Assembly: GCA_035501935.1 (NCBI GenBank)
Contig: DATJVC010000034.1
Span: forward strand, 4,621-68,620
Reading direction: 5' to 3'
Origin: Gammaproteobacteria bacterium
Lineage (GTDB): Bacteria; Pseudomonadota; Gammaproteobacteria; JAJPIJ01
DNA length: 64,000 bases
This document shows positions 7,146 through 49,436 of this stretch, in pieces (within the stretch, counting starts at the first letter, position 1; each line of letters opens with the position of its first letter). The notes below the pieces were generated by a model, which was given only the letters and a program-made list of their open reading frames with translations, ran no database searches and was not told the DNA's origin. Position numbers and translations under genes: made by a program.

Positions 7146-10100
7146 ATGAAGGCTTTACCATGCACCCCCTTTGTTGTTGCGTTGCGGAAATCGTATCGTT
7201 GTCGTATGAACAGAACCCCCAAAAATTCATCACTCAATCCGCCCTCACCGGCGTTAAAGCTTGGCATGCCCGGTTACATCTACGCCGATCTGTATGAACC
7301 GGAGCGGCTGGCCGAATTGCTGACTACATTTGACACGGCTGTCAAAACCGGCGATGCCGATTTATTTGCGGAGTGGCAGGCATATCGCGTATGTCAGGGC
7401 GTTGGCATGACGCCGGAGGCAATCTCCGCGCTGCTGGTGCGCATGGCTCCGCACGTAGGCGGCTTTGTCGCGCGGCTGTTCAATGTCGGCGGTGATCGCG
7501 AGCGCCAGATGGCGGCCATCCAGGACGAAATGGACACCGTCTTCGTGTTCCGCGCCGAGGTGGTGATGAAGGTCGACACCGCATTGAAGGGAACGGATGC
7601 CGGAGGGCTGGATCTCGCCGCCATCGACCAGCAGATCGTCACGCTAAAGCGCGTGGCCTACCCGGCCACAACGCGGGATCCTGACGCAGAACGCGCACTT
7701 GCCCGCGTCGGCGCGGCACTCTGGAAACTTGTCAATCACTATCAGCTCATCGCCGGCAACAAACCGGGCGCGCATGCCGGCGCCGACGCTGAAATTTCCC
7801 GCCTGCGCAAAGTGCTGTCCGCGGATGCCGGGGCAAAATCGCTGTTTGCCACTGCGCTCGCAATGATTGAACCCGCCGCCTTTGTGGCGGCGTTGTTCGA
7901 TCCGATCCAGCGCTGGTGTTATGCCGCGCTCCATCTCGACGCGCGCAAAAAGATCGTCAGGCATTGGATGACCTTCAAATCGCCGGCGAAGACCGATTCC
8001 CGTAATCTGGTACCGGTGGAAGCGGAGCAGCGTGCGAATTATTCCGCACTCAAGGGGCCCCACGATCACCACCGCCGGCGCGATGGCTTTCATCTCACCG
8101 ATACGCGCTGCAACGAACGCGAGGCGCTCTATGAGGTTGATCATTGCATCTACTGCCACGACCGCGACACCGACTCGTGTTCCAAGGGCATGCGCAACAG
8201 GAAGGACGGCAGCTACAAGGTCAATGCACTGGGTGTGAATATCACCGGTTGTCCGCTCGATGAGAAGATTTCCGAAATGCACGTGCTCAAGCGCCAGGGC
8301 GACAACATCGGCGCGCTGGCGCTGATCATCGTCGACAATCCACTGTGCCCCGGCACCGGCCACCGCATCTGCAACGACTGCATGAGGGGTTGCATCTACC
8401 AGAAGACCGAGCCCGTCAACATTCCCCAGATCGAGACCAATGTCCTGACCGATGTGCTGTTCATGCCATGGGGCTTCGAAATTTACAGTTTCCTGACACG
8501 CTGGAACCCGCTCAACGTGAAGCGCCCGCACGCGCTGCCCTACAACGGCAGGAATGTGCTGATCGCGGGCCTGGGCCCCGCCGGCTACACGCTGGCGCAG
8601 TATCTGTTGAATGAGGGTTTCGCCGTTGTCGGCATCGACGGCCTCAAGATCGAACCGCTGCCGGTGGAGCTGACCGGTGATGACACCACGCCGCCGCGGC
8701 CGATTCACGATTTCCACGACCTGTATGAAGACCTGGACCGGCGCATCATGCTCGGCTTCGGCGGCGTGGCCGAATACGGCATCACCGTGCGCTGGGACAA
8801 AAATTTCCTCAAGGTGATTTATCTCACACTCGCCCGCCGCAACACCTTCCGTTGCTACGGTGGTGTGCGTTTCGGCGGCACGCTGACCATCAACGAGGCT
8901 TGGGACCTGGGCTTCCACCACATCGCCATTGCCAGCGGCGCCGGCAAACCGACCATCATCGGGATCAGGAACAACCTCATCCGCGGCATACGCAAGGCCT
9001 CGGATTTCCTGATGGCGCTGCAATTGACCGGCGCGGCGAAGGAATCTTCGCTGGCCAACTTGCAGGTGCGTTTGCCGGCCGGCGTCATCGGCGGGGGACT
9101 CACCGCCATCGATACCGCCACCGAATTGATGGCCTATTACCCGGTGCAGGTGGAAAAGATCCTGCACCGTTACGAGACACTGAGTGCACAGCTGGGCGAG
9201 GACATGATCCGCAGCCGGCTCGATAGTGAAGAGTCCGCCATCCTCGGTGAATTTCTTGCCCACGGCAGCGCCATTCGCGCCGAACGCGAGCGCGCCAAGA
9301 CGGCCGGCGAGCCGCCGAATTTCCAGCCGCTGCTCGATCAGTGGGGCGGCGTGACGATCTTCTACCGCAAGGGGATGAAGGATTCACCCGCCTACCGCCA
9401 GAATCATGAAGAAGTGATCAAGGCGCTCGAGGAAGGCATCGCCTGGGCCGAGGGCATGGATCCGCGCGAGGCGCTCGAAGATGAGCATGGTCATCTGCGG
9501 GCCGTGCGCTTCGAAAAATACACGCCCGCCGACGGCAAATGGGCGGATTCCGGCGAACAGCCGGAGGTGGCGCTGAAAAGCCTGTTCATCGCCGCCGGCA
9601 CCTCGCCCAACACCATCTATCAAACGGAGTATCCCGACACCTTTGAGATGGACGGCAAGTTCTATCAGCGCTATGAGCCCATTGCCGGGAACGGCGTGAC
9701 CACGCTGGCGCCCGTGCATGACATGACCTGGCCCAAGATCGGCAAGCCGGCGCCGCTCACCTCGTATCATCGCGATGGGCGCTTCATCAGTTTCTACGGC
9801 GACAACCACCCCGTATACGCCGGCAATGTGGTCAAGGCAATGGCCAGCGCCAAGGACGGGTATCCCTACGTCGTCAAGTTGTTTGATTCCGAATTGAAGT
9901 CGCTGGATCCATCGCGGCAAACCGAACGCGACGCCGCGCTCAAGGTGCTCAAGACCAGGCTGGATGATGAGCTGCTTGCCACCGTGGTTGAAGTAAACCG
10001 GCTGACGCCGACGATCATCGAGGTGGTGGTGCGCGCCCGACGAGCCGCGCGAAAATTTTCACCGGGACAGTTCTACCGCGTGCAAAACTTCGAGAGCCAC

Positions 10101-10961
10101 GCCGAGAAGGCCGAGGGCACCGTGCTCGCCTCCGAAGGATTGGCGTTGACCGGCGCCTGGGTGGACAAGGACAAGGGCCTCATTTCGCTCATCGCCCTCG
10201 AGATGGGCGCTTCCAGCCGCATCTGCGCCACGCTCAAACCCGGCGAGCCCATCGTCGTCATGGGGGTGACAGGCACGCCCACGGACATTCCCAGCGGCCG
10301 GAATGTGCTCCTCGCCGGCGGCGGGCTGGGCAATGCGGTGTTGTTCTCGATCGGACGGGCGCTGCGCGCCGCAGGCAACAACGTCATATACTTCGCCGGT
10401 TATCGCAACGGCCAGGACCTGTTCAAACGCGAGGACATTGAGGCGGCCTCCGACATCGTGGTCTGGGCCGTGGATCGCCAGGCGAATGCCGCCGTCATCC
10501 CGCCGCGGCGTCCGCAGGATAAAACCTTCATCGGCAACATCGTCGAGGCCATGCTGGCCTACGCCAGGGGCGAGCTCGGCGAAACCCCCATCCATCTTGA
10601 TGATGTCGATCACATGATCGTCATCGGTTCCGACCGCATGATGGCGGCGGTCAAGGAAGCGCGTCATGGTGCGCTCAAGCCGTACCTCAAACCCAGCCAC
10701 CACGCCATCGGTTCCATCAACTCACCGATGCAGTGCATGATGAAGGGGGTATGCGCACAGTGCTTGTGCAAGCACGTCGACCCCAAAACCGGCGAAGAGT
10801 ATTTCGTTTATTCATGTAACAATCAGGATCAGGATCTGGACCATGTGGATTTTCCGAACCTGAACGCCCGCCTGCGCCAGAATACTGTGCAGGAGAAAAT
10901 CGCCAGTTTATGGCTGGATTATCTGCTGGACAAACGGCCCTCCCGGGAGACGGCTGCCTGA
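7146..10961 (+). CDS. large multidomain Fe-S/FAD/NAD(P) oxidoreductase: GltD/NfnB-like module fused to a PyrK/NfnA-like ferredoxin-reductase module
   Basis: 1271-aa ORF. Cys clusters: CIYCHDRDTDSC and CPGTGHRICNDCMRGC. Rossmann motifs: VLIAGLGPAGYTLAQYL and VIGGGLTAIDTA. The C-terminal FNR-like part has RFSPGQFYRV and VLLAGGGLGNAVL. PyrK-type cluster motif: CMMKGVCAQCLC. Start is uncertain (ATG 7146, 7206 or 7266). Confidence 0.7.
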   Translation: MKALPCTPFVVALRKSYRCRMNRTPKNSSLNPPSPALKLGMPGYIYADLYEPERLAELLTTFDTAVKTGDADLFAEWQAYRVCQGVGMTPEAISALLVRMAPHVGGFVARLFNVGGDRERQMAAIQDEMDTVFVFRAEVVMKVDTALKGTDAGGLDLAAIDQQIVTLKRVAYPATTRDPDAERALARVGAALWKLVNHYQLIAGNKPGAHAGADAEISRLRKVLSADAGAKSLFATALAMIEPAAFVAALFDPIQRWCYAALHLDARKKIVRHWMTFKSPAKTDSRNLVPVEAEQRANYSALKGPHDHHRRRDGFHLTDTRCNEREALYEVDHCIYCHDRDTDSCSKGMRNRKDGSYKVNALGVNITGCPLDEKISEMHVLKRQGDNIGALALIIVDNPLCPGTGHRICNDCMRGCIYQKTEPVNIPQIETNVLTDVLFMPWGFEIYSFLTRWNPLNVKRPHALPYNGRNVLIAGLGPAGYTLAQYLLNEGFAVVGIDGLKIEPLPVELTGDDTTPPRPIHDFHDLYEDLDRRIMLGFGGVAEYGITVRWDKNFLKVIYLTLARRNTFRCYGGVRFGGTLTINEAWDLGFHHIAIASGAGKPTIIGIRNNLIRGIRKASDFLMALQLTGAAKESSLANLQVRLPAGVIGGGLTAIDTATELMAYYPVQVEKILHRYETLSAQLGEDMIRSRLDSEESAILGEFLAHGSAIRAERERAKTAGEPPNFQPLLDQWGGVTIFYRKGMKDSPAYRQNHEEVIKALEEGIAWAEGMDPREALEDEHGHLRAVRFEKYTPADGKWADSGEQPEVALKSLFIAAGTSPNTIYQTEYPDTFEMDGKFYQRYEPIAGNGVTTLAPVHDMTWPKIGKPAPLTSYHRDGRFISFYGDNHPVYAGNVVKAMASAKDGYPYVVKLFDSELKSLDPSRQTERDAALKVLKTRLDDELLATVVEVNRLTPTIIEVVVRARRAARKFSPGQFYRVQNFESHAEKAEGTVLASEGLALTGAWVDKDKGLISLIALEMGASSRICATLKPGEPIVVMGVTGTPTDIPSGRNVLLAGGGLGNAVLFSIGRALRAAGNNVIYFAGYRNGQDLFKREDIEAASDIVVWAVDRQANAAVIPPRRPQDKTFIGNIVEAMLAYARGELGETPIHLDDVDHMIVIGSDRMMAAVKEARHGALKPYLKPSHHAIGSINSPMQCMMKGVCAQCLCKHVDPKTGEEYFVYSCNNQDQDLDHVDFPNLNARLRQNTVQEKIASLWLDYLLDKRPSRETAA

Positions 10962-11927: not shown

Positions 11928-14147
11928 CTATTTCACCCGCATGCCCGGTTCGGCGCCATTGTCGGGACTGAGTATGAAAATTCCCGGCCCGTCACCCGAG
12001 GCGGCGAGCACCATACCCTCGGACATGCCGAATTTCATTTTGCGCGGTGCCAGATTGGCGGCGACGACCGTCAAACGGCCCACCAACGTCGCTGGATCAT
12101 AAGCAGACTTGATGCCGGCAAAGATCGTCCGCGTGTGGCCTTCATTGAGATCGACCGTCAACTTGAGCAGTTTATCGGCGCCCTCGACATGTTCGGCATT
12201 CACAATCTTCGCGATACGCAGGTCCACCTTGCTGAATTCGTCGATGCTGATGTGATTGGCTTCATTCATGGCCTTTTCGTCCGTATGTTGCTGATGTTGT
12301 GCATGCCGCTGCTGCGAATGGCTGTCCCTGGCCGGCGCCAGTGTTTCCTTGCTCGCCTCCACCATCGTATCTATTGCTTTTAGGTCAATTCGCGCCATCA
12401 AATGCGTGTATTCGTTGATTCTATGACCTGCTGGAAGAGGTTCAAGAACGTCAGACCAAATGAAGGATTTAACGTTTAAGAATTTCTCAATTTCGCTAAC
12501 AAGCCGTGGTAAAATCGGCTTCAGCAGGATCGATACGGATCGAAACAGTGCGATAGCCATAGTGCATACCTCATGAAGTCTTGATTCTTTCCCAACTTGT
12601 TTTGCTAAGTCCCAAGGCTTCTTCTCGTTTACATATTCATTCGCTAGGTCTGCAATCTTCATTAACTTCCGAAGTGCGAAACTGTATTCTCTCGTTTCAT
12701 AGCATTCTGCAATAAGCTTTAACTGTAGCTCCTTGATATCTCCATAAGCATCTTTCTCTTGAGCAAGTTCTTTAGCAAGTACACTTGCACCTGCTTGAAT
12801 GAAGCTACGATGTTCTTCCTCACTATGTTGACTTACTGGTGGATTATCACCATCAATAATTATCTTCCTATATAGTTCTTTAGATTCTTTCGACAATTCT
12901 GCAAGTTCACCATTGAAGTGCTTGCTGATAAAACCCGCGCAGCGGGAGGCGATATTGATGTACTTGCCGATGAGATCGGAGTTGACGCGGGCAACGAAGT
13001 CATCGAGGTTGAGATCGACATCCTCCATCGTGCCGTTGAGCTTGGCGGCGTAGTAGTAGCGCAGGTATTCGGGGTTCTTGATGTGCTCCAGATAACTACG
13101 TGCGGTGATAAAAGTACCGCGCGACTTCGACATCTTCTCGCCATTCACGGTGAGAAAGCCGTGCGAGTAAATCTTCGTCGGCGTACGGTAGCCGGAGTTT
13201 TCCAGCATTGCCGGCCAGAACAAGGCATGGAAATAGAGGATGTCCTTGCCGATGAAGTGAATCATCTCCGCGCCTGACTTCGCCGCCGCCTTCTCGTCGA
13301 TGAAGTCCTTTACCTCTGCGCCGCGGCCGTTGCGGTCGAAATAATTCTTGAAGCTGCCGAAATAGCCGATGGGCGCGTCCAGCCAGACGTAGAAATATTT
13401 CTTGCCGTTGGTGCCGGGAATCTCAAAGCCGAAGTACGGTGCATCGCGGGAGATGTCCCAGTCGTTCAGGCCCGCGGCAAACCATTCCTGCATTTTATTT
13501 GCGGCCTCTGCCTGCAGGGTGCCGGAACGGGTCCACTCTTTGAGAAATTTCTCGCAGTCGCCGAGTTTGAAAAAATAATGCTCGGATTCCTTGCGCACCG
13601 GCGTGGCGCCGGAGATGGCCGAGTACGGATTCTTCAGATCAGTCGGTGCATAGGTGGCGCCGCAGTTTTCGCAGGAGTCACCGTACTGATCCTTGGTACC
13701 GCACTTCGGGCACTCGCCCTTGATGTAGCGATCCGGCAGGAACATGTTCTTGACCGGGTCGAAAAATTGCTCGACGGTGCGGCGCGCGATCAAGCCTGCC
13801 TTGTCGAGCTTTTTGTAGATGTCCTCGGCGTACTGGCGCGTTTCGTCCGAATGGGTCTGGTGGTAATTGTCGAATTCCACCAGAAAATCCTTGAAATCCC
13901 GCTTGTGCTCTTCATAGACACGTGCGATCAATTGCTCCGGCGTAATGCCGTCCTTGTCGGCGCGCAGCATGATCGGCGTGCCGTGGGTATCGTCGGCGCA
14001 AACGTAATGCACCTCATGGCCGCGCATCTTCTGGAAGCGCACCCAGATGTCGGTCTGGATGTACTCGACCAGATGGCCGAGATGGATCGGCCCGTTGGCA
14101 TAGGGCAATGCGCTGGTTGCGAGGATGCGGCGTTTGGGTTCGGACAT
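11928..14147 (-). CDS. metG: methionine--tRNA ligase (739 aa, with C-terminal tRNA-binding domain)
   Basis: Begins [22 protein letters not shown] (HIGH region) and contains KMSKSRG (KMSKS). Zn knuckle: CPKCG...CENCG. The C-terminal Trbp111-like domain ends GAEPGMRVK. Confidence 0.95.
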
Positions 14148-41717: not shown

Positions 41718-42287
41718 CTATCTCCGATCGATATTCGATGCTGACTTTTTAGTTGTTTTCTTTCCGGCGCGACTTTTACGTTGATGAGAAATACGCTCAA
41801 GTACGAGGAAACTATAAGGATCAGCATTAAGCTGTTTTAACCTGCGCTCATCTTTTTTTATGATTTCCCACTCATTCATATCAATTGGGGGGAAAGTAGT
41901 ATCCCCAAAAAAACGACTGCCTTTTATTTGTGTAAGGTAAATCCGAGACACAAACGGAAAAAACTCTTTATATATTTCACCTCCACCGATCACCATAATT
42001 TCTGTTTTCTCTGTTGCTAACTTCTTCGCCATATTTAGTGCACTTTCTACAGAGTGAGCAACCGTACAACCCGACGCTAGGAAATTGCGATCTCGTGTCA
42101 CTATGATATTAGTACGTCCCGGCAAAGGTTTGCCAAGCGATTCGAAGGTGCGTCGCCCCATGATAATGGCTTTCCCCATGGTAATCTTTTTGAATCTGCG
42201 AAGATCCGACGGAAGACGCCAAGGTAATTGATTGCTCCAGCCAATAGTAAGCCATTCATCAACCGCAACAATGATCGAAACTCTCAT
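41718..42287 (-). CDS. folA: dihydrofolate reductase, low-G+C allele with a basic C-terminal tail
   Basis: 189 aa. Contains [32 protein letters not shown] and IGGGEIY. About 24 extra residues ([24 protein letters not shown]) follow the canonical ...LVLER end. ATGA overlap with thyA. Confidence 0.9.
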
Positions 42288-43950: not shown

Positions 43951-44745
43951 ATGACCGGCCCATCAACCTCAAAACCCATTGCGCTCATTACCGGCGCCTC
44001 CAGCGGGATAGGACTTGAACTCAGCCGGTTATTTGCCGCCGGCGGCTATGCACTGGCGCTGTCGGCTCGCCGGACCGCGGAACTCAACCAGCTTGCGGAC
44101 GAACTCAAAACTGCGCACGGTACGCCTGTAACTGTGTTCCCCCTTGATCTTTCACAACCGGGCGCGGCCCGCGAGTTGTGGACCCAGGTGGAAAAGGCAA
44201 ATTTGCAGATCGATGTGCTGGTCAATAATGCAGGTCTGGGCATCACCGACGCCTTTGTCGCGACGGATCCGGCCGCCCTGGAAACCATGCTGCGTGTCAA
44301 CATGGAGGCCCTCACCATGTTGACGCGCTACGCGCTGCCGGCCATGTTGCAGCGCCGTCGTGGACGCATCCTCAATGTCGGTTCCGTGGTCGGCTACCAG
44401 CCCGGCGGCCCCGGCATGGCCGTGTATTACGCCTCCAAGAGTTATGTCCTGTCGTTCTCACGCGCCCTGACCGTGGAGTTGCGCGGCAGCGGCGTCACGG
44501 TCACAGCGCTGTGCCCCGGCACGACGCGTACCGAATTCGAACAAAGAGCCGGTGAGAAGGCGGGCCGCCTGTTCCGCCTGATGCGGCCCATGGATGCCCG
44601 GACCGTTGCGATGGCCGGTTATCAGGGACTGCACGCCGGGCGCGCCATCGTCATCCCCGGCCTGTTCAACAAGATAATGGCCGTTGCCGGAGAACTGCCG
44701 CCGCGTCAGATTGCGCTCGCCGTCAACCGCATATTGTTGTCATGA
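43951..44745 (+). CDS. short-chain dehydrogenase/reductase (SDR) family oxidoreductase
   Basis: [11 protein letters not shown] lies near the N-terminus and YYASK is the catalytic motif. GGAGA lies 5 nt before ATG 43951. Confidence 0.8.
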
Positions 44746-46832
44746 CCTCCGCCGCAAGGGCTCACCGTAACGCCCTCGCAGGCGAAACCAGTCCGTATTT
44801 GTTGCAGCACGCCGGGAACCCGGTGGACTGGCATCCGTGGGGCGATGAGGCGCTCAAGCTCGCGCGCGAGACGGGCAGGCCCATCCTGCTGTCGGTGGGC
44901 TACTCGGCCTGTCACTGGTGCCACGTCATGGCGCACGAATCCTTTGAGGACGAAGAGACGGCGGCATTGATGAACGAGCACTTCGTCAACATCAAGGTTG
45001 ATCGCGAGGAACGCCCCGACCTCGACAAAATCTACCAGACGGCGCAATACCTGCTGACCCGGCGCTCGGGTGGCTGGCCGCTCACCATGTTCCTCACCCA
45101 CGATGACCATGTGCCGTTCTACGGCGGCACCTACTTCCCGGGCGAGCCGCGCTGGGGCATGCCCTCGTTCAAGGATTTGCTGCGGCACATCGCCGAGGTG
45201 TACCGCGAGCGGCTGCCTGAACTGCGTGAGCAGAACCAGGCCGTGCTGGAGGCCCTGCGCGGGCAGATGTCCACGCAAAACGACGAAGATCTCCCTGCGC
45301 CCTCCTCCGAACCGCTGCTGAAGGCCCGGCGCGACATTGAAAACGGTTTCGACGCGGTCGACGGCGGCTTCGGCGCGGCGCCCAAATTTCCGCATCCACC
45401 CATGCTGGAGCGGCTGTTACGGCATCACGCCGCATCCGTGGCAGCGGGTGAGTCCGATGCGCCGGCCCTGCATATGGCGGTGTTCACCCTGCGGAAAATG
45501 GCGGAGGGCGGCATGTACGACCAGATCGGCGGCGGCTTCGCGCGCTATTCCGTCGATGCCCACTGGATGATCCCGCACTTCGAGAAGATGCTGTACGACA
45601 ATGCGCAGTTGCTGGGGCTGTACGTGCAGGCTTGGCAAATTACGGGCGATCCCTGCTTCCGCCAGATTGCGATGGAAACCGCCGACTGGGTGACCCGCGA
45701 CATGCAATCTCCGGAAGGCGGCTATTACTCTTCGCTGGACGCCGACTCGGAGGGACACGAGGGCAAGTTTTACGCTTGGTCGCGCGAGGAAGTGCGCGCC
45801 CTGCTGACGGATGCCGAATATGCCGTCCTCGCACCACATTATGGTCTTTCCCATGCGCCGAATTTCGAAGGGCAATGGCATTTTCACGTCATGCAATCCC
45901 TTGAAGACGTTGCGGCAGCTGCAAAACTGGAGATCACACAAGCACGCGAATTGCTAAACTCCGCGCGCGCAAAGCTACTCACAGTACGCAACAAGCGCAT
46001 CTGGCCCGGACGCGACGAGAAGATTTTGACCTCATGGAACGCGTTGATGATCAAAACCATGGCGCTGGCGGGATTTCATTTGGATCGCCAGGATTATCTC
46101 GACAGCGCACGGCGGGCGCTGGATTTTCTGCGCGCGCGCATGTGGCAGGGCAATCGCCTGCTTGCGACATACAAGGACAACCACGCGCATCTCAATGCCT
46201 ATCTGGACGATTACGCCTTCCTGATTGATGCGCTGTTGATGATGCTCTCCGTGCACTGGCGCGATGAGGACCTGGCCTGGGTCACAGCGCTGGCCGATGT
46301 GCTGTTGGAGCAGTTTGAAGACAAGGAGAAAGGCGGCTTTTATTTCACCGCGCATGATCACGAGCAGCTCATCCTGCGCAGCAAGACCTGCGCCGATGAG
46401 GCGCTGCCCGCCGGCAACGGCATCGCCGCGCTGGTGCTGGGACGATTGGGACACTTGCTTGGGAATGAGCGCTATTTGCTGGCTGCCGAACGCACGCTCA
46501 AATCCTGCTGGCTCGCTATCTTGCAACATCCCTCCGCGCATCTGACCCTGCTCTCGGCACTCGAAGAATTATTACAACCGCCACAGACCGTAGTGTTGCG
46601 CGGCACTGGTGATGAACTCATCGCCTGGCAGCGTATCGCCATGCGTGGTTACGTCCCCCGCCGTCAGGTCTTTGCCATTCCCACCGATGCCCAAAATCTG
46701 CCATCGCTGCTGGCCGCGCGTGAACCTTCCAAAAGCGGTACAGTGGCTTATGTCTGCGAAGGCACCCACTGCGAAGCCCCGGTATCCAAGTCAGGGGAAC
46801 TTGAGAAACTAGTAGAGAAAATAGACGGTTGA
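44742..46832 (+). CDS. thioredoxin-domain protein of the YyaL/DUF255 family (N-terminal Trx-like domain plus (alpha/alpha)6 barrel)
   Basis: 696 aa. Contains [22 protein letters not shown] and the [11 protein letters not shown] motif. Confidence 0.8.
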
Positions 46833-48503
46833 TCTTAAAATTTAAATAATCTGAATCACCAAATGTGATATGTATGTAACGATAAACATCGGGGCTTTTT
46901 CTTTTGCCTCCTAATGAACGAAAAACCGCTCTATGATCGTTTGCAACATCTTGACCTCGGGAACGGAGTTGCCGAGCACGATAACTTGCTCTGGAAATGC
47001 ATGGTCGAAACTCAGCATTTCACCGATTTACTATATGATCGCGCTGACCTCGTGTTAGGAAGCAAGGGGGCGGGGAAATCTTCTCTTTTTCGAATGTTTG
47101 GTGAGATTCTGGAAGATAAACTTCTCACGGATTGGAAAACAATAGTTGTTTCTGGTGTCGAAACCCAAGGTGAACCAATTTTTAAATCTTATGCCAACCA
47201 CTTTCAGAGATTTTCTGAATCACAATTTGAAACATTTTGGAAAGCATATCTTTTAAGTCTTATATATAACAGGATATGTTACGATGATAAAATTAAAGCA
47301 ATATTTATTCCTCACGAAGCTGAACTTAAAAATTTCAAAAAACTCTACGAGAATCTCGGACTCATTGATGCCGGAAAAGTCACCTCCCCAACAAAATTAC
47401 TTAAGCTTATATGTGCATTTACAATAGCCGCAATTGAAGGTGTAAGGGCGGCATGGGACGTCGACAAGAACCAAATAGTTTGGGGGCTTAATTTCCGCGA
47501 AAAGATTGAAGAAGGTTATCAGGAAGTTGTCGTGCCAAATTTAGAAAATATGGACACGGTCTTGTGCATCGACGCACTTTCAAATTTAGTAAAGATAAGT
47601 GGATATAAAGTCTGGATAATTCTTGATCATCTTGACGTTGTTTTCAAAAGGCGTTCCTCGGAAGAAACTAAGGCACTAAGGGCTTTGCTCAAGGTGCTAT
47701 ATGCATTTACTACAAACCATATAAGACTAAAAATATTCTTGCGTGATGACATACTTGACGCGATTAGTTCAGATTCGGAGGAGCCGCTGGCGGCTGTTTC
47801 TCACATCACTGCACGGTCTGCGCCAAATCTTAAATGGACGTCCGATTCTTTATGCGTAATGATCATAAAAAGACTGGCTGCTGATCCTTGGCTTTCTCAG
47901 GAATATAACCTCAATCCTAATAAATTAGACGACGTTGACTATGCGCGCGAAAGCTTTCAGAGGATTTTTGCTCTGAAATACGTCAGACAGCTGGCGTTTG
48001 ATTGGATCTTTTCTCTTCTTTCGGATGGACGGGGTGTTGTTACTCCACGCGATTTAATTGACCTGCTTAAGAAAGCTCTGCACATTCAATCCCTCTGGCT
48101 TCAAAAGCATCCTGATAAAAAAGAATTTATGACCATTACAGCTATACAGGAAGCTTATCATGAGCTTTCGAAAAATAGAAAAGAGACCGTTCTTCAAACA
48201 GAATTTTCCCATCTTATGCATTGGATTCGGAAGCTTGAGCGAAATAAGGAGAAATATTCGAAAGACGAATTGCCTCTCGTTTTTGGCGATGAGGCTTATA
48301 AAGCAATTTCGACTTTACAAGCAATAGGTGTAATCCAATTTGATCATAAAAAATCTTGTTACCGCGTTGCCAAACTATACAGTCCTGGACTCCAAGTATA
48401 TGCTACTAGGGCAAAAAAACAGCCATCCCAACCATGTTGAAACCAGTTGATCCTGCTATTTTGATTAGTAGAAATTTCGAATTATTAATATCGATGTACG
48501 ACG
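46833..48503. other. low-G+C islet (single gene; no integrase, tRNA or IS)
   Basis: My counts on 60-nt lines: 47221-47280 is 25% G+C and 47641-47700 is 45%. Lines I counted elsewhere in the window (13021-13080 and 42601-42660) are 58% and 62%. The islet boundaries coincide with the stop codons of the two flanking core genes. Confidence 0.7.
46914..48440 (+). CDS. hypothetical P-loop NTPase (orphan, family not recognised)
   Basis: 508-aa ORF. Walker A is GSKGAGKS (aa 49-56). A Walker-B-like VWIILDHLD lies at aa 233-241. A TPRDLIDLLKKAL lid-like helix is also present. Composition is K/E/I/N-rich. Confidence 0.75.
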   Translation: MNEKPLYDRLQHLDLGNGVAEHDNLLWKCMVETQHFTDLLYDRADLVLGSKGAGKSSLFRMFGEILEDKLLTDWKTIVVSGVETQGEPIFKSYANHFQRFSESQFETFWKAYLLSLIYNRICYDDKIKAIFIPHEAELKNFKKLYENLGLIDAGKVTSPTKLLKLICAFTIAAIEGVRAAWDVDKNQIVWGLNFREKIEEGYQEVVVPNLENMDTVLCIDALSNLVKISGYKVWIILDHLDVVFKRRSSEETKALRALLKVLYAFTTNHIRLKIFLRDDILDAISSDSEEPLAAVSHITARSAPNLKWTSDSLCVMIIKRLAADPWLSQEYNLNPNKLDDVDYARESFQRIFALKYVRQLAFDWIFSLLSDGRGVVTPRDLIDLLKKALHIQSLWLQKHPDKKEFMTITAIQEAYHELSKNRKETVLQTEFSHLMHWIRKLERNKEKYSKDELPLVFGDEAYKAISTLQAIGVIQFDHKKSCYRVAKLYSPGLQVYATRAKKQPSQPC

Positions 48504-49436
48504 CTAAAGGTTGCGCTGGAAACTTTCGCGGAAGCGGGCCCAGAAATCGTCCTTGCTGAAACGGTGGTTCTGGGTGCCGGCGGATTCGATCTTGATGGCG
48601 CCCATGAGCGCGGCGATGCGCCCCGTGGTCTCCCAATCAAGCTTGTTCATGAGGCCATATAGAAGACCCGCCCGATAGGCATCGCCGCAGCCCGTAGGAT
48701 CAACCAACTCCTTGGCTTTGGCAATCGGGATATCATAGGTTTTCTCCTTGGTATGGATCGAGGAGCCATCGGCGCCGCGCGTCACGATCAACGCCTGCAC
48801 CTGCTGCGTGATCTGCTCGATGCTCAAGCCCGTGCGATCCTGCATCAACTGCCATTCGTAGTCGTTCAGCGTCACCCAGGCGGCCTGCGTGAGGAATCGT
48901 CGCAGTTCATCGCCGTTGAACATCGGCATGCCCTGGCCGGGATCGAAGATGAAGGGGATGCCCGCGGCGGCGAACTGCGCGGCATGTTCGACCATGCCAT
49001 CGCGGCCGTCGGGGGCGATGACGCCGATGGTCACGCCGTTCGCCGACGCGACTTTATTCATGTGCGCGAAATTCATCGCGCCGGGATGGAAGGCGGTGAT
49101 CTGGTTGTCGTCGAGATCGGTGGTGATAAACGCCTGCGCCGTCAGCATGCCGGAAATTTCGGTGACGTGCCGGTCTGGAATCTGATTCTCTCCCAGCCAC
49201 TGCCGGTAGGGGCGGAAATCGCCGCCGACCGTGCCCATTGGCAGCGGCCAGCCGCCGAGCAGTTTGAGGTTGTAGGCGATGTTGCCGGCGCAGCCGCCGA
49301 ATTCGCGCCGCATCCGCGGCACCAGGAAGGACACGTTCAGGATGTGTATCTTGTCGGGCAGGATGTGGTTCTTGAAGCGGTCTTCAAAGACCATGATGTT
49401 GTCGTAGGCGAACGAACCGCAGATCAGCGCTGACAT
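48504..49436 (-). CDS. PfkB-family carbohydrate/nucleoside kinase (adenosine-kinase-like)
   Basis: 310 aa. Contains GGCAGNIAYNL and the C-terminal DPTGCGDAYRAG (PfkB signature 2). Confidence 0.8.
   Translation of the reverse strand: MSALICGSFAYDNIMVFEDRFKNHILPDKIHILNVSFLVPRMRREFGGCAGNIAYNLKLLGGWPLPMGTVGGDFRPYRQWLGENQIPDRHVTEISGMLTAQAFITTDLDDNQITAFHPGAMNFAHMNKVASANGVTIGVIAPDGRDGMVEHAAQFAAAGIPFIFDPGQGMPMFNGDELRRFLTQAAWVTLNDYEWQLMQDRTGLSIEQITQQVQALIVTRGADGSSIHTKEKTYDIPIAKAKELVDPTGCGDAYRAGLLYGLMNKLDWETTGRIAALMGAIKIESAGTQNHRFSKDDFWARFRESFQRNL

Follow-up and report, generated by a model that had tools for sequence, protein, structure and literature searches.

What function is served by a single, markedly AT-rich gene that stands between two core genes of an uncultured gammaproteobacterium? 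This question is raised by a stretch of 64,000 nucleotides (64 kb, hereafter the window) of the 70.7-kb metagenome contig DATJVC010000034.1, in which the interval 46833-48503 carries one gene, at 46914-48440 on the + strand, for a protein of 508 aa. We conclude that this gene almost certainly belongs to the Sll1717-family P-loop ATPases, as a divergent member of that named family, and that the islet is very probably a one-gene horizontal acquisition. A stand-alone defence function against phages or mobile DNA is the role that we favour, with some reserve, and it is drawn from family membership and genomic context.

The locus is sharply delimited. On its left lies the gene of a YyaL-like thioredoxin-domain protein (44742-46832, +; 696 aa, PF03190) and on its right, convergent with yyaL, a PfkB-family kinase gene (48504-49436, -; 310 aa). 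The surroundings are core genes, and the ribosomal-protein/rpoA operon is about 3 kb from the ATPase gene. This gene is the entire cargo of the islet, and is flanked by a left spacer of 81 nt (46833-46913, G+C 0.31) and a right spacer of 63 nt (48441-48503, G+C 0.32), the latter with an AT-rich palindrome at 48458-48491. The G+C content is 0.393 in the interval and 0.401 in the gene, compared with 0.603 for the window, and it drops to 0.34-0.44 over about 46750-48500, with 0.58-0.68 on either side. The islet is the lowest-G+C 1.5-kb stretch of the window, and only 4% of the 60-nt lines outside it have a G+C of 0.45 or less. The G+C at third codon positions is 0.36 in the ATPase gene versus 0.74 in yyaL and 0.82 in pfkB. 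An initial annotation of the locus had given the same gene borders with a single credible open reading frame (ORF), which the ORF list confirms, and had described a collapse in G+C; its line counts (0.25 at 47221 and 0.45 at 47641) were exact.

The identity of the protein is settled by profile searches. The initial annotation had treated it as an orphan of no named family, and as a candidate for an undescribed single-gene system. Neither description holds, given that the protein scores 134.6 bits against a curated cutoff of 75 (expectation value, E, 5.3e-39) on the NCBIfam model NF047389 (P-loop ATPase, Sll1717 family), with aa 15-474 aligned to profile positions 1-415 of 454, while its relatives P0039 and P0054 reach 136 and 158 bits on the same model. 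The match to PHROG 14159, a family of unknown function, is full-length (E 2e-35). The family is thus already known, being represented in NCBIfam, PHROGs and PADLOC and having one validated anti-phage branch, and what is new here is the divergent member. The family was named after Synechocystis Sll1717, and the name carries no function; a literature search for Sll1717 found no papers. Profile searching, which the initial annotation had proposed as a check, returned a confident family match, to a family whose name says nothing of its role. In Pfam, the window protein has sub-threshold matches only, namely nSTAND1 (16.9 bits versus a gathering threshold of 27.1), ORC-CDC6-like, AAA_16 and AAA. 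The nSTAND1 match is likewise sub-threshold in 35 of 45 homologues (best E 5e-6), followed by NPHP3_N, AAA, AAA_16, ORC-CDC6-like and NACHT. Scans of Pfam, PADLOC, NCBIfam and PHROGs found no domain beyond the ATPase module and no effector domain, and among all PDB chains the family profile retrieved, by sequence, only P-loop-level matches to ABC transporters.

The family is large and deeply divergent. A word-indexed search returned 296 relatives, of which one group is 51-82% identical to the window protein and a larger group, from Omnitrophota, Patescibacteria, Chloroflexota, Planctomycetota and Acidobacteriota, is about 33% identical. In a full profile search of 1.84 billion representatives, 2,521 clusters (at 50% identity) passed E <=1e-3, and 521 of these also passed E <=1e-30. 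Among the best 150 representatives, nearly all are proteins of about 500 aa or fragments. The longer members recovered in a fusion search carry helical tails, together with one methyltransferase fusion, one tandem ATPase and one Mrr chimera; they are rare and mutually unrelated, and no effector fusion recurs among them. Two facts favour the 508-aa start over the 479-aa database call: the alignment to homologues of 504-512 aa begins at residue 1, and conservation extends through the N-terminal 29 residues. In two homologous loci, L005 and L006 (both at 7914-8000), the reading frame ahead of the annotated ATG still encodes these 29 conserved residues, starting with a codon other than Met. Database annotation probably shortens all three proteins (485-486 aa in these two loci, 479 aa in the window), and the two homologous genes may use non-ATG starts.

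The link to function passes through DS-41 (laboratory name AAA2, WP_033812887.1), a single 1,509-nt gene for a protein of 502 aa from the DefensePredictor study, which when cloned protects Escherichia coli against BASEL phages, by 3.6 log for Bas63, 2.7 for Bas3, 2.3 for Bas19 and 1.4 for Bas25 (PMC13092281). The DS-41 protein scores 414.7 bits on its own equivalog model, NF053860, and 96.4 bits on NF047389, for which the cutoff is 75, and NCBI names many DS-41 homologues 'P-loop ATPase, Sll1717 family'. Since the window protein, like DS-41, clears NF047389, the two represent separate branches of a single named family. Both are stand-alone proteins of near-equal size (502 aa for DS-41 versus 508 aa) with no effector domain. 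They also share a co-linear series of motifs, comprising G-x-x-G-x-GKS, a helical insert of about 190 aa, h-h-h-D-x-L-D, a conserved Trp after the core, and (S/T)-P-R-(D/E)-h-I in the lid, where S-P-R-E-L-I of DS-41 is co-linear with T377-P-R-D of the window protein. Both genes are found amid toxin-antitoxin and mobile genes. They differ in the residue that follows the Walker B aspartates, which is Glu in DS-41 and Val in the window protein, and the H-x-x-x-R motif of the window protein aligns to a shorter stretch in DS-41. Further, DS-41 is enterobacterial, plasmid-borne and experimentally tested, whereas the window gene is known from sequence alone. PADLOC v2 contains no model matching DS-41. 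The full DS-41 gene was recovered from a conjugative E. coli IncF plasmid (L087, CP058102.1, 82180-90645), where its neighbours are a gene for a 499-aa RES-family NAD+ phosphorylase, ccdAB, a relE/copG pair and astA.

Conservation of the protein was scored in an alignment of 45 homologues, and the window protein keeps all 51 of its invariant positions. The Walker A motif, G49-S-K-G-A-G-K55-S56 (47058-47081, +), has G49, K51, G52 and K55 invariant. In the Walker B motif, V233-W-I-I-L-D238-H-L-D241 (47610-47636, +), which has the D-x-x-D form of the signal transduction ATPases with numerous domains (STAND), W234, D238, L240 and D241 are invariant. The triplet R277-D278-D279 (47742-47750, +), also invariant, stands at the putative sensor-1 position, at the end of a modelled strand (270-277), and an Arg at this position is typical of STAND NTPases. 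H297-x-x-x-R301 (47802-47816, +), with both residues invariant, may supply trans-acting fingers, a role suggested by spacing only. The lid helix contains D371-G-R-G-V-V-T-P-R379-D-L-I-D-L (48024-48065, +), in which D371, G372, T377, P378, R379 and D380 are invariant and R379 is the putative sensor-2 arginine. Finger and sensor assignments follow from sequence spacing only, in comparison with BrxC, the structural match discussed below. The Walker A, Walker B and TPRD motifs had been placed correctly in the initial annotation, and are invariant or nearly so; the first two are separated by a large insert, as it had also noted. This helical insert (aa 85-215; 47166-47558, +) lies between strand beta-2 and the helix preceding Walker B and is the most variable part of the protein. 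Its identity to distant members is 14-27%, versus 44-47% for the core, and it is the lowest region among close relatives too, which makes it a candidate specificity surface. Nonsynonymous divergence (dN) from four homologous genes is 0.14-0.20, with synonymous sites saturated and hence no dN/dS ratio, and indicates strong purifying selection on the ATPase gene.

The AlphaFold2 model of the protein has a mean predicted local distance difference test score (pLDDT) of 86.5 and a predicted template-modelling score of 0.83. In its first half, a conserved N-terminal element (aa 13-45) is followed by the P-loop strand and helix and by a strand at 76-80. The insert, at aa ~85-215, is mostly helical with a beta-hairpin, and pLDDT falls to 54-64 at aa 180-210. 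The second half contains a helix, the Walker B strand (232-237), a strand at 270-277, the helix bearing H297 and R301, and a helical lid. It ends in a predicted helical and beta-hairpin domain that is winged-helix-like (aa 401-495; 48114-48398, +). The C-terminal half (aa 305-508) modelled alone has a pLDDT of 90.9 and shows a helix, a short strand, a long helix and a beta-hairpin.

Foldseek against the PDB places the N-terminal domain of BrxC, a protein of the bacteriophage exclusion (BREX) system, at the top of the list (9zdx_C, E 2e-4, TM-score 0.42). It is followed by archaeal ORC2 (1w5t, E 3e-4, TM-score 0.27-0.32), Cdc6/Orc1 (2qby, E 3e-3), Drosophila Cdc6 and CED-4; against viral structures, nothing was found below E 1e-3. 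The best structural match, significant although its TM-score is low, is the N-terminal AAA+ domain of BrxC/PglY (PDB 9zdx, 9zll), in which Walker A K78, Walker B E269, the trans-acting fingers K326/R330 and the sensor-2 R430 have been described, along with ATP-dependent back-to-face dimers, DNA-promoted oligomers that include heptamers, and DNA binding (PMC13326643). The distance from Walker A to Walker B is 186 residues in the window protein (K55-D241) versus 191 in BrxC. H297 and R301 stand at +56/+60 from D241, compared with +57/+61 from E269 for K326 and R330, and the lid arginine R379 is at +138 versus +161. The two proteins have no detectable sequence similarity. Unlike the window protein, BrxC is about 1,200 aa long, contains a coiled coil and further domains, and acts only within a six-gene BREX system; within 10 kb on either side of the window gene, pglZ, brxB, pglX and brxL are absent, and only core metabolic and ribosomal genes are present.

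The window protein resembles the ORC/Cdc6 proteins and the STAND NTPases (nSTAND1, NACHT, Apaf-1/CED-4, Avs) in having an AAA+ core, then a helical lid, then a putative winged-helix-like domain. The STAND proteins further share with the window protein the D-x-x-D Walker B and the Arg at the sensor-1 position, whose roles here are putative. Unlike them, the window protein has neither a C-terminal repeat sensor (TPR, WD40, LRR) nor an N-terminal effector, it contains a large insert within the ATPase core, and all of its Pfam scores are below the gathering thresholds.

How did such a gene come to lie between yyaL and pfkB? The junction was compared across 80 loci anchored on YyaL from related genomes, mostly uncultured Gammaproteobacteria and Steroidobacteraceae. 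The ATPase has no relative in any of the 80. In 30 of them yyaL and pfkB form a convergent pair, with a gap of 472-5,300 bp and variable cargo. In the closest relative (L007), YyaL, PfkB and ThyA are 86%, 90% and 89% identical to those of the window, and the yyaL-pfkB gap is 1,316 bp, has a G+C of 0.50 and holds different cargo, including two small ORFs. A duplicate of about 130 nt of the pfkB 3' end (L007 9737-9865, -) lies directly beside a hicB-like gene (9864-10070) and hicA (10067-10279; HicA_toxin PF07927, 44.3 bits), and is what an insertion of toxin-antitoxin genes, targeted to the end of pfkB, has left behind. The yyaL-pfkB gap is thus a recurrent insertion slot, a small hotspot which carries different conflict genes in sister genomes, with no visible integrase, tRNA gene or repeats.

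The borders of the foreign DNA can be placed by comparison with L007. From yyaL towards pfkB, the two sequences diverge some 40 nt ahead of the yyaL stop and are similar again from about 10 nt before that of pfkB, which probably puts the foreign segment at roughly 46795-48493. Within yyaL, the final ~12 codons (~46795-46832) have an AT-rich sequence that bears no relation to the tail of the L007 protein (…LPKLKERLG*). The acquired DNA probably replaced the 3' end of yyaL without truncating it, and supplied its present C-terminal tail. Elsewhere, homologues 73-77% identical to the window protein are encoded by genes of 37-46% G+C in hosts of 46-65% G+C, and nucleotide similarity of their loci to the window extends from the start codon to about 30 nt before the stop, with no flanks shared. 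The horizontal acquisition proposed in the initial annotation is thus upheld, because the gene is absent from the 80 loci, the slot has other cargo in L007, the composition is atypical, and homologues of 70-82% identity are scattered over unrelated hosts and places. A classical integrase-mediated genomic island was considered and rejected: there is no integrase or insertion sequence (IS) within 10 kb of the gene, no tRNA gene in the whole window and no significant direct or inverted repeat flanking the islet, and the ORF is the only part shared between loci. This agrees with the earlier report that no effector domain, partner gene, integrase, tRNA or IS is nearby.

The neighbourhoods of homologues differ from one another and mostly contain mobile and conflict genes. 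Small hypothetical genes adjoin the ATPase gene in two loci (L002/L003). In L004 the neighbours are two resolvases, a large N6/N4 methyltransferase and a helix-turn-helix (HTH) protein; in L005, a DDE transposase, a caspase-TPR protein and Mut7-C; in L006, an Xre/RES toxin-antitoxin pair; in L088, HigB/HTH and an M78 peptidase; in L089, an adjoining TIR-domain gene; and in L090, IS21. At a distance of up to 8 kb, eight of nine distinct contexts have genes of the IS, resolvase, toxin-antitoxin, TIR, caspase-TPR, AbiE or Mrr kind, which is a qualitative count with no background control. No neighbour recurs across eight independent contexts, and the ten immediate flanking proteins of homologues, when searched against PADLOC, revealed no common partner, only generic HTH and DnaG-like matches. 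Such contexts fit a mobile, stand-alone conflict gene. One relative, P0047 (L108 3745-4983; also L109-L111), is a 412-aa in-frame chimera of ATPase residues 1-297, from a close homologue, and an Mrr catalytic domain (PF04471, E 3e-30), joined at a conserved S-H-I motif. It occurs on 13 independently assembled contigs from several samples, beside AbiEi/AbiEii and a truncated methylmalonyl-CoA mutase gene. This chimera may be a recombination scar in a defence hotspot, which we prefer, or else a functional ATPase-nuclease fusion.

Taken with DS-41, whose branch protects on its own, the presence of homologues beside IS, toxin-antitoxin, TIR, AbiE and resolvase genes supports the stand-alone anti-phage role that the initial annotation had thought probable. 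Several points weigh against this role or against its details. The branch of DS-41 is very distant from the window protein, and the validated protection belongs to DS-41 only. On NF053860 (DS41_1_antiphage) the window protein scores 27.6 bits versus a cutoff of 370 (E 1.4e-6), over aa 143-323 only, and by this measure it is not a DS-41 equivalog. The hhalign comparison of the window clade with a 30-sequence DS-41 alignment gives E 0.0023 with a probability of 12.6%, over 225 co-linear columns, which stretch from Walker B to the C-terminal domain and take in (S/T)-P-R-(D/E)-h-I, and comparison with the single DS-41 sequence gives E 0.011. A claim of direct homology was dropped as too weak on these two values, and the link between the proteins is their shared NCBIfam model. 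The association with mobile and defence genes is the uncontrolled count given above, and the clade's PADLOC match leads to PDC-M28, a multi-gene candidate (genes A, B and C) that is itself unvalidated. A promoter and terminator scan of the islet found no signal above the shuffled-sequence background; two weak sigma-70-like matches lie at 46813-46850, in the left spacer and the end of yyaL. Position 242, after the Walker B aspartates, is Glu in 25, Val in 14 and Ile in 6 of the 45 sequences. It is Val in the window protein and Glu in the distant clade and DS-41, so that ATP turnover in the window clade may be slow or absent. Structurally, the winged-helix C-terminus suggested by the initial annotation is consistent with the model. 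It gains no statistical support, since the aa 305-508 model has no significant Foldseek match in the PDB (best E 0.26); the non-significant matches are to Cdc6/ORC, Apaf-1, NOD2, an archaeal AAA+ protein and IclR/MarR winged-helix repressors. The mechanism proposed below leans on structural analogy at low TM-scores (0.3-0.42).

The most serious competitor to a defence role, although an unlikely one, is a selfish or maintenance gene of mobile DNA, such as an ORC/Cdc6-like ATPase for the replication, partition or addiction of a lost element. The fold, nearest to initiator-type AAA+ proteins (ORC2/Cdc6) and BrxC, would suit this role, as would the frequent position of homologues beside IS elements, resolvases and toxin-antitoxin pairs. 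Relatives also reside on IncF plasmids and, at 21-31% identity, on 17 viral or prophage contigs of IMG/VR (L091-L107), often near the contig end, and the PHROG match points the same way. However, no iterons, origin-like repeats or partner genes occur in or around the islet, and the loci share the ORF only. A tblastn search of 50,697 complete phage records (INPHARED) found no relative, and the sole tested member of the family is anti-phage when cloned alone.

Nor is it probable that the gene is the leftover of a multi-gene system, such as PDC-M28 with its genes A, B and C, and non-functional alone here. The PADLOC candidate model PDC-M28C does match the window protein (E 2.6e-13), over aa 220-325 only and model positions 159-259 of 480. 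The match is longer in P0054 and extends up to aa 229-465 in relatives, with E 1e-11 to 1e-15 across the clade, and the shared portion runs from Walker B to the lid; DS-41 is not matched by this model. The chimera P0047 shows, in addition, that members can be truncated and recombined in defence hotspots. Against these observations, PDC-M28A and PDC-M28B partners are found neither beside the window gene, whose neighbours are yyaL and pfkB, nor among the ten scanned flanking proteins of homologues, and the eight independent contexts have no common neighbour. The best 150 family representatives are mostly of about 500 aa, with extensions that are rare and unrelated, and DS-41 works as a single gene. 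The gene in the window is full length, keeps every invariant residue and is under purifying selection. The suggestion in the initial annotation that it might be a remnant of a larger system is accordingly not sustained. No literature was found for PDC-M28.

Equally doubtful is a passenger gene, intact but silent or ATPase-dead, that arrived recently, has been silenced or is impaired by Val242, and serves no purpose in its present host. Its extremely AT-rich, unameliorated sequence would be expected of such a passenger. There is also no Shine-Dalgarno-like purine run upstream of the ATG, no promoter above background, and no Glu after the Walker B aspartates anywhere in the window clade, where Val or Ile takes its place. 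Yet Val or Ile at this position, in 20 of the 45 otherwise strongly constrained sequences, is a trait of the clade and not decay, and D238 and D241 are invariant. Moreover, many STAND switches act by nucleotide binding and exchange, with very slow hydrolysis. Finally, a housekeeping gene of this lineage that happens to have an odd composition, which its position among core genes near the ribosomal-protein/rpoA operon might suggest, can be set aside because of the presence/absence pattern, as the gene is missing from all 80 related yyaL loci, including one with flanking proteins 86-90% identical, and the nearest homologues are spread across phyla and contexts unrelated to one another.

If a stand-alone defence function is accepted, how might it operate? 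The mechanism of DS-41 is reportedly unpublished. From the model, the conserved residues and the analogy with BrxC, we offer a tentative scheme. The protein would be a minimal AAA+/STAND-type switch, consisting of an ATPase core, a lid with R379 and a winged-helix-like domain, with no enzymatic effector. A phage cue, be it a protein or a DNA structure, would be sensed by the hypervariable insert (about 130 aa) that separates Walker A from Walker B. Binding of ATP would then drive head-to-tail oligomers through the trans-acting H297 and R301, and the assembly would bind DNA, or sequester a phage or host factor, with the result that phage replication is blocked or the infection is aborted. A more specific and rather speculative version is an effector-less immune ATPase that forms an ATP-driven ring or filament on phage DNA or protein, as in BrxC or ORC, with the insert as specificity module and the Val242 clade as a slow-hydrolysis 'latch'.

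If true, this would be a defence principle apart from nuclease, NADase, protease and membrane effectors, and a plausible ancestral form of both the STAND immune sensors and the BREX ATPase. Effector-less single-gene ATPases are among the least understood anti-phage systems, DS-41 having been validated only recently, and the named family has a large and deeply divergent radiation in environmental bacteria. The invariant catalytic and finger residues, the single hypervariable insert and the parallel with BrxC provide concrete handles on the mechanism. For annotation, a 'hypothetical protein' becomes a probable defence gene.

Two further departures in composition occur in the window. The folA gene, for a dihydrofolate reductase of 189 aa (41718-42287, -), is a second low-G+C gene (0.42) and overlaps the stop of thyA (G+C 0.58). 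The folA gene of L007 occupies the same place beside its 89% identical thyA, has a G+C of 0.64 and is only 44% identical to that of the window. The window folA seems to be a foreign copy that has displaced the original gene at its own position; its product ends in a lysine-rich C-terminal tail. A milder dip, to a G+C of about 0.50, is seen at 11928-12500 (-), in the 3' part of metG, which encodes a methionyl-tRNA synthetase of 739 aa.

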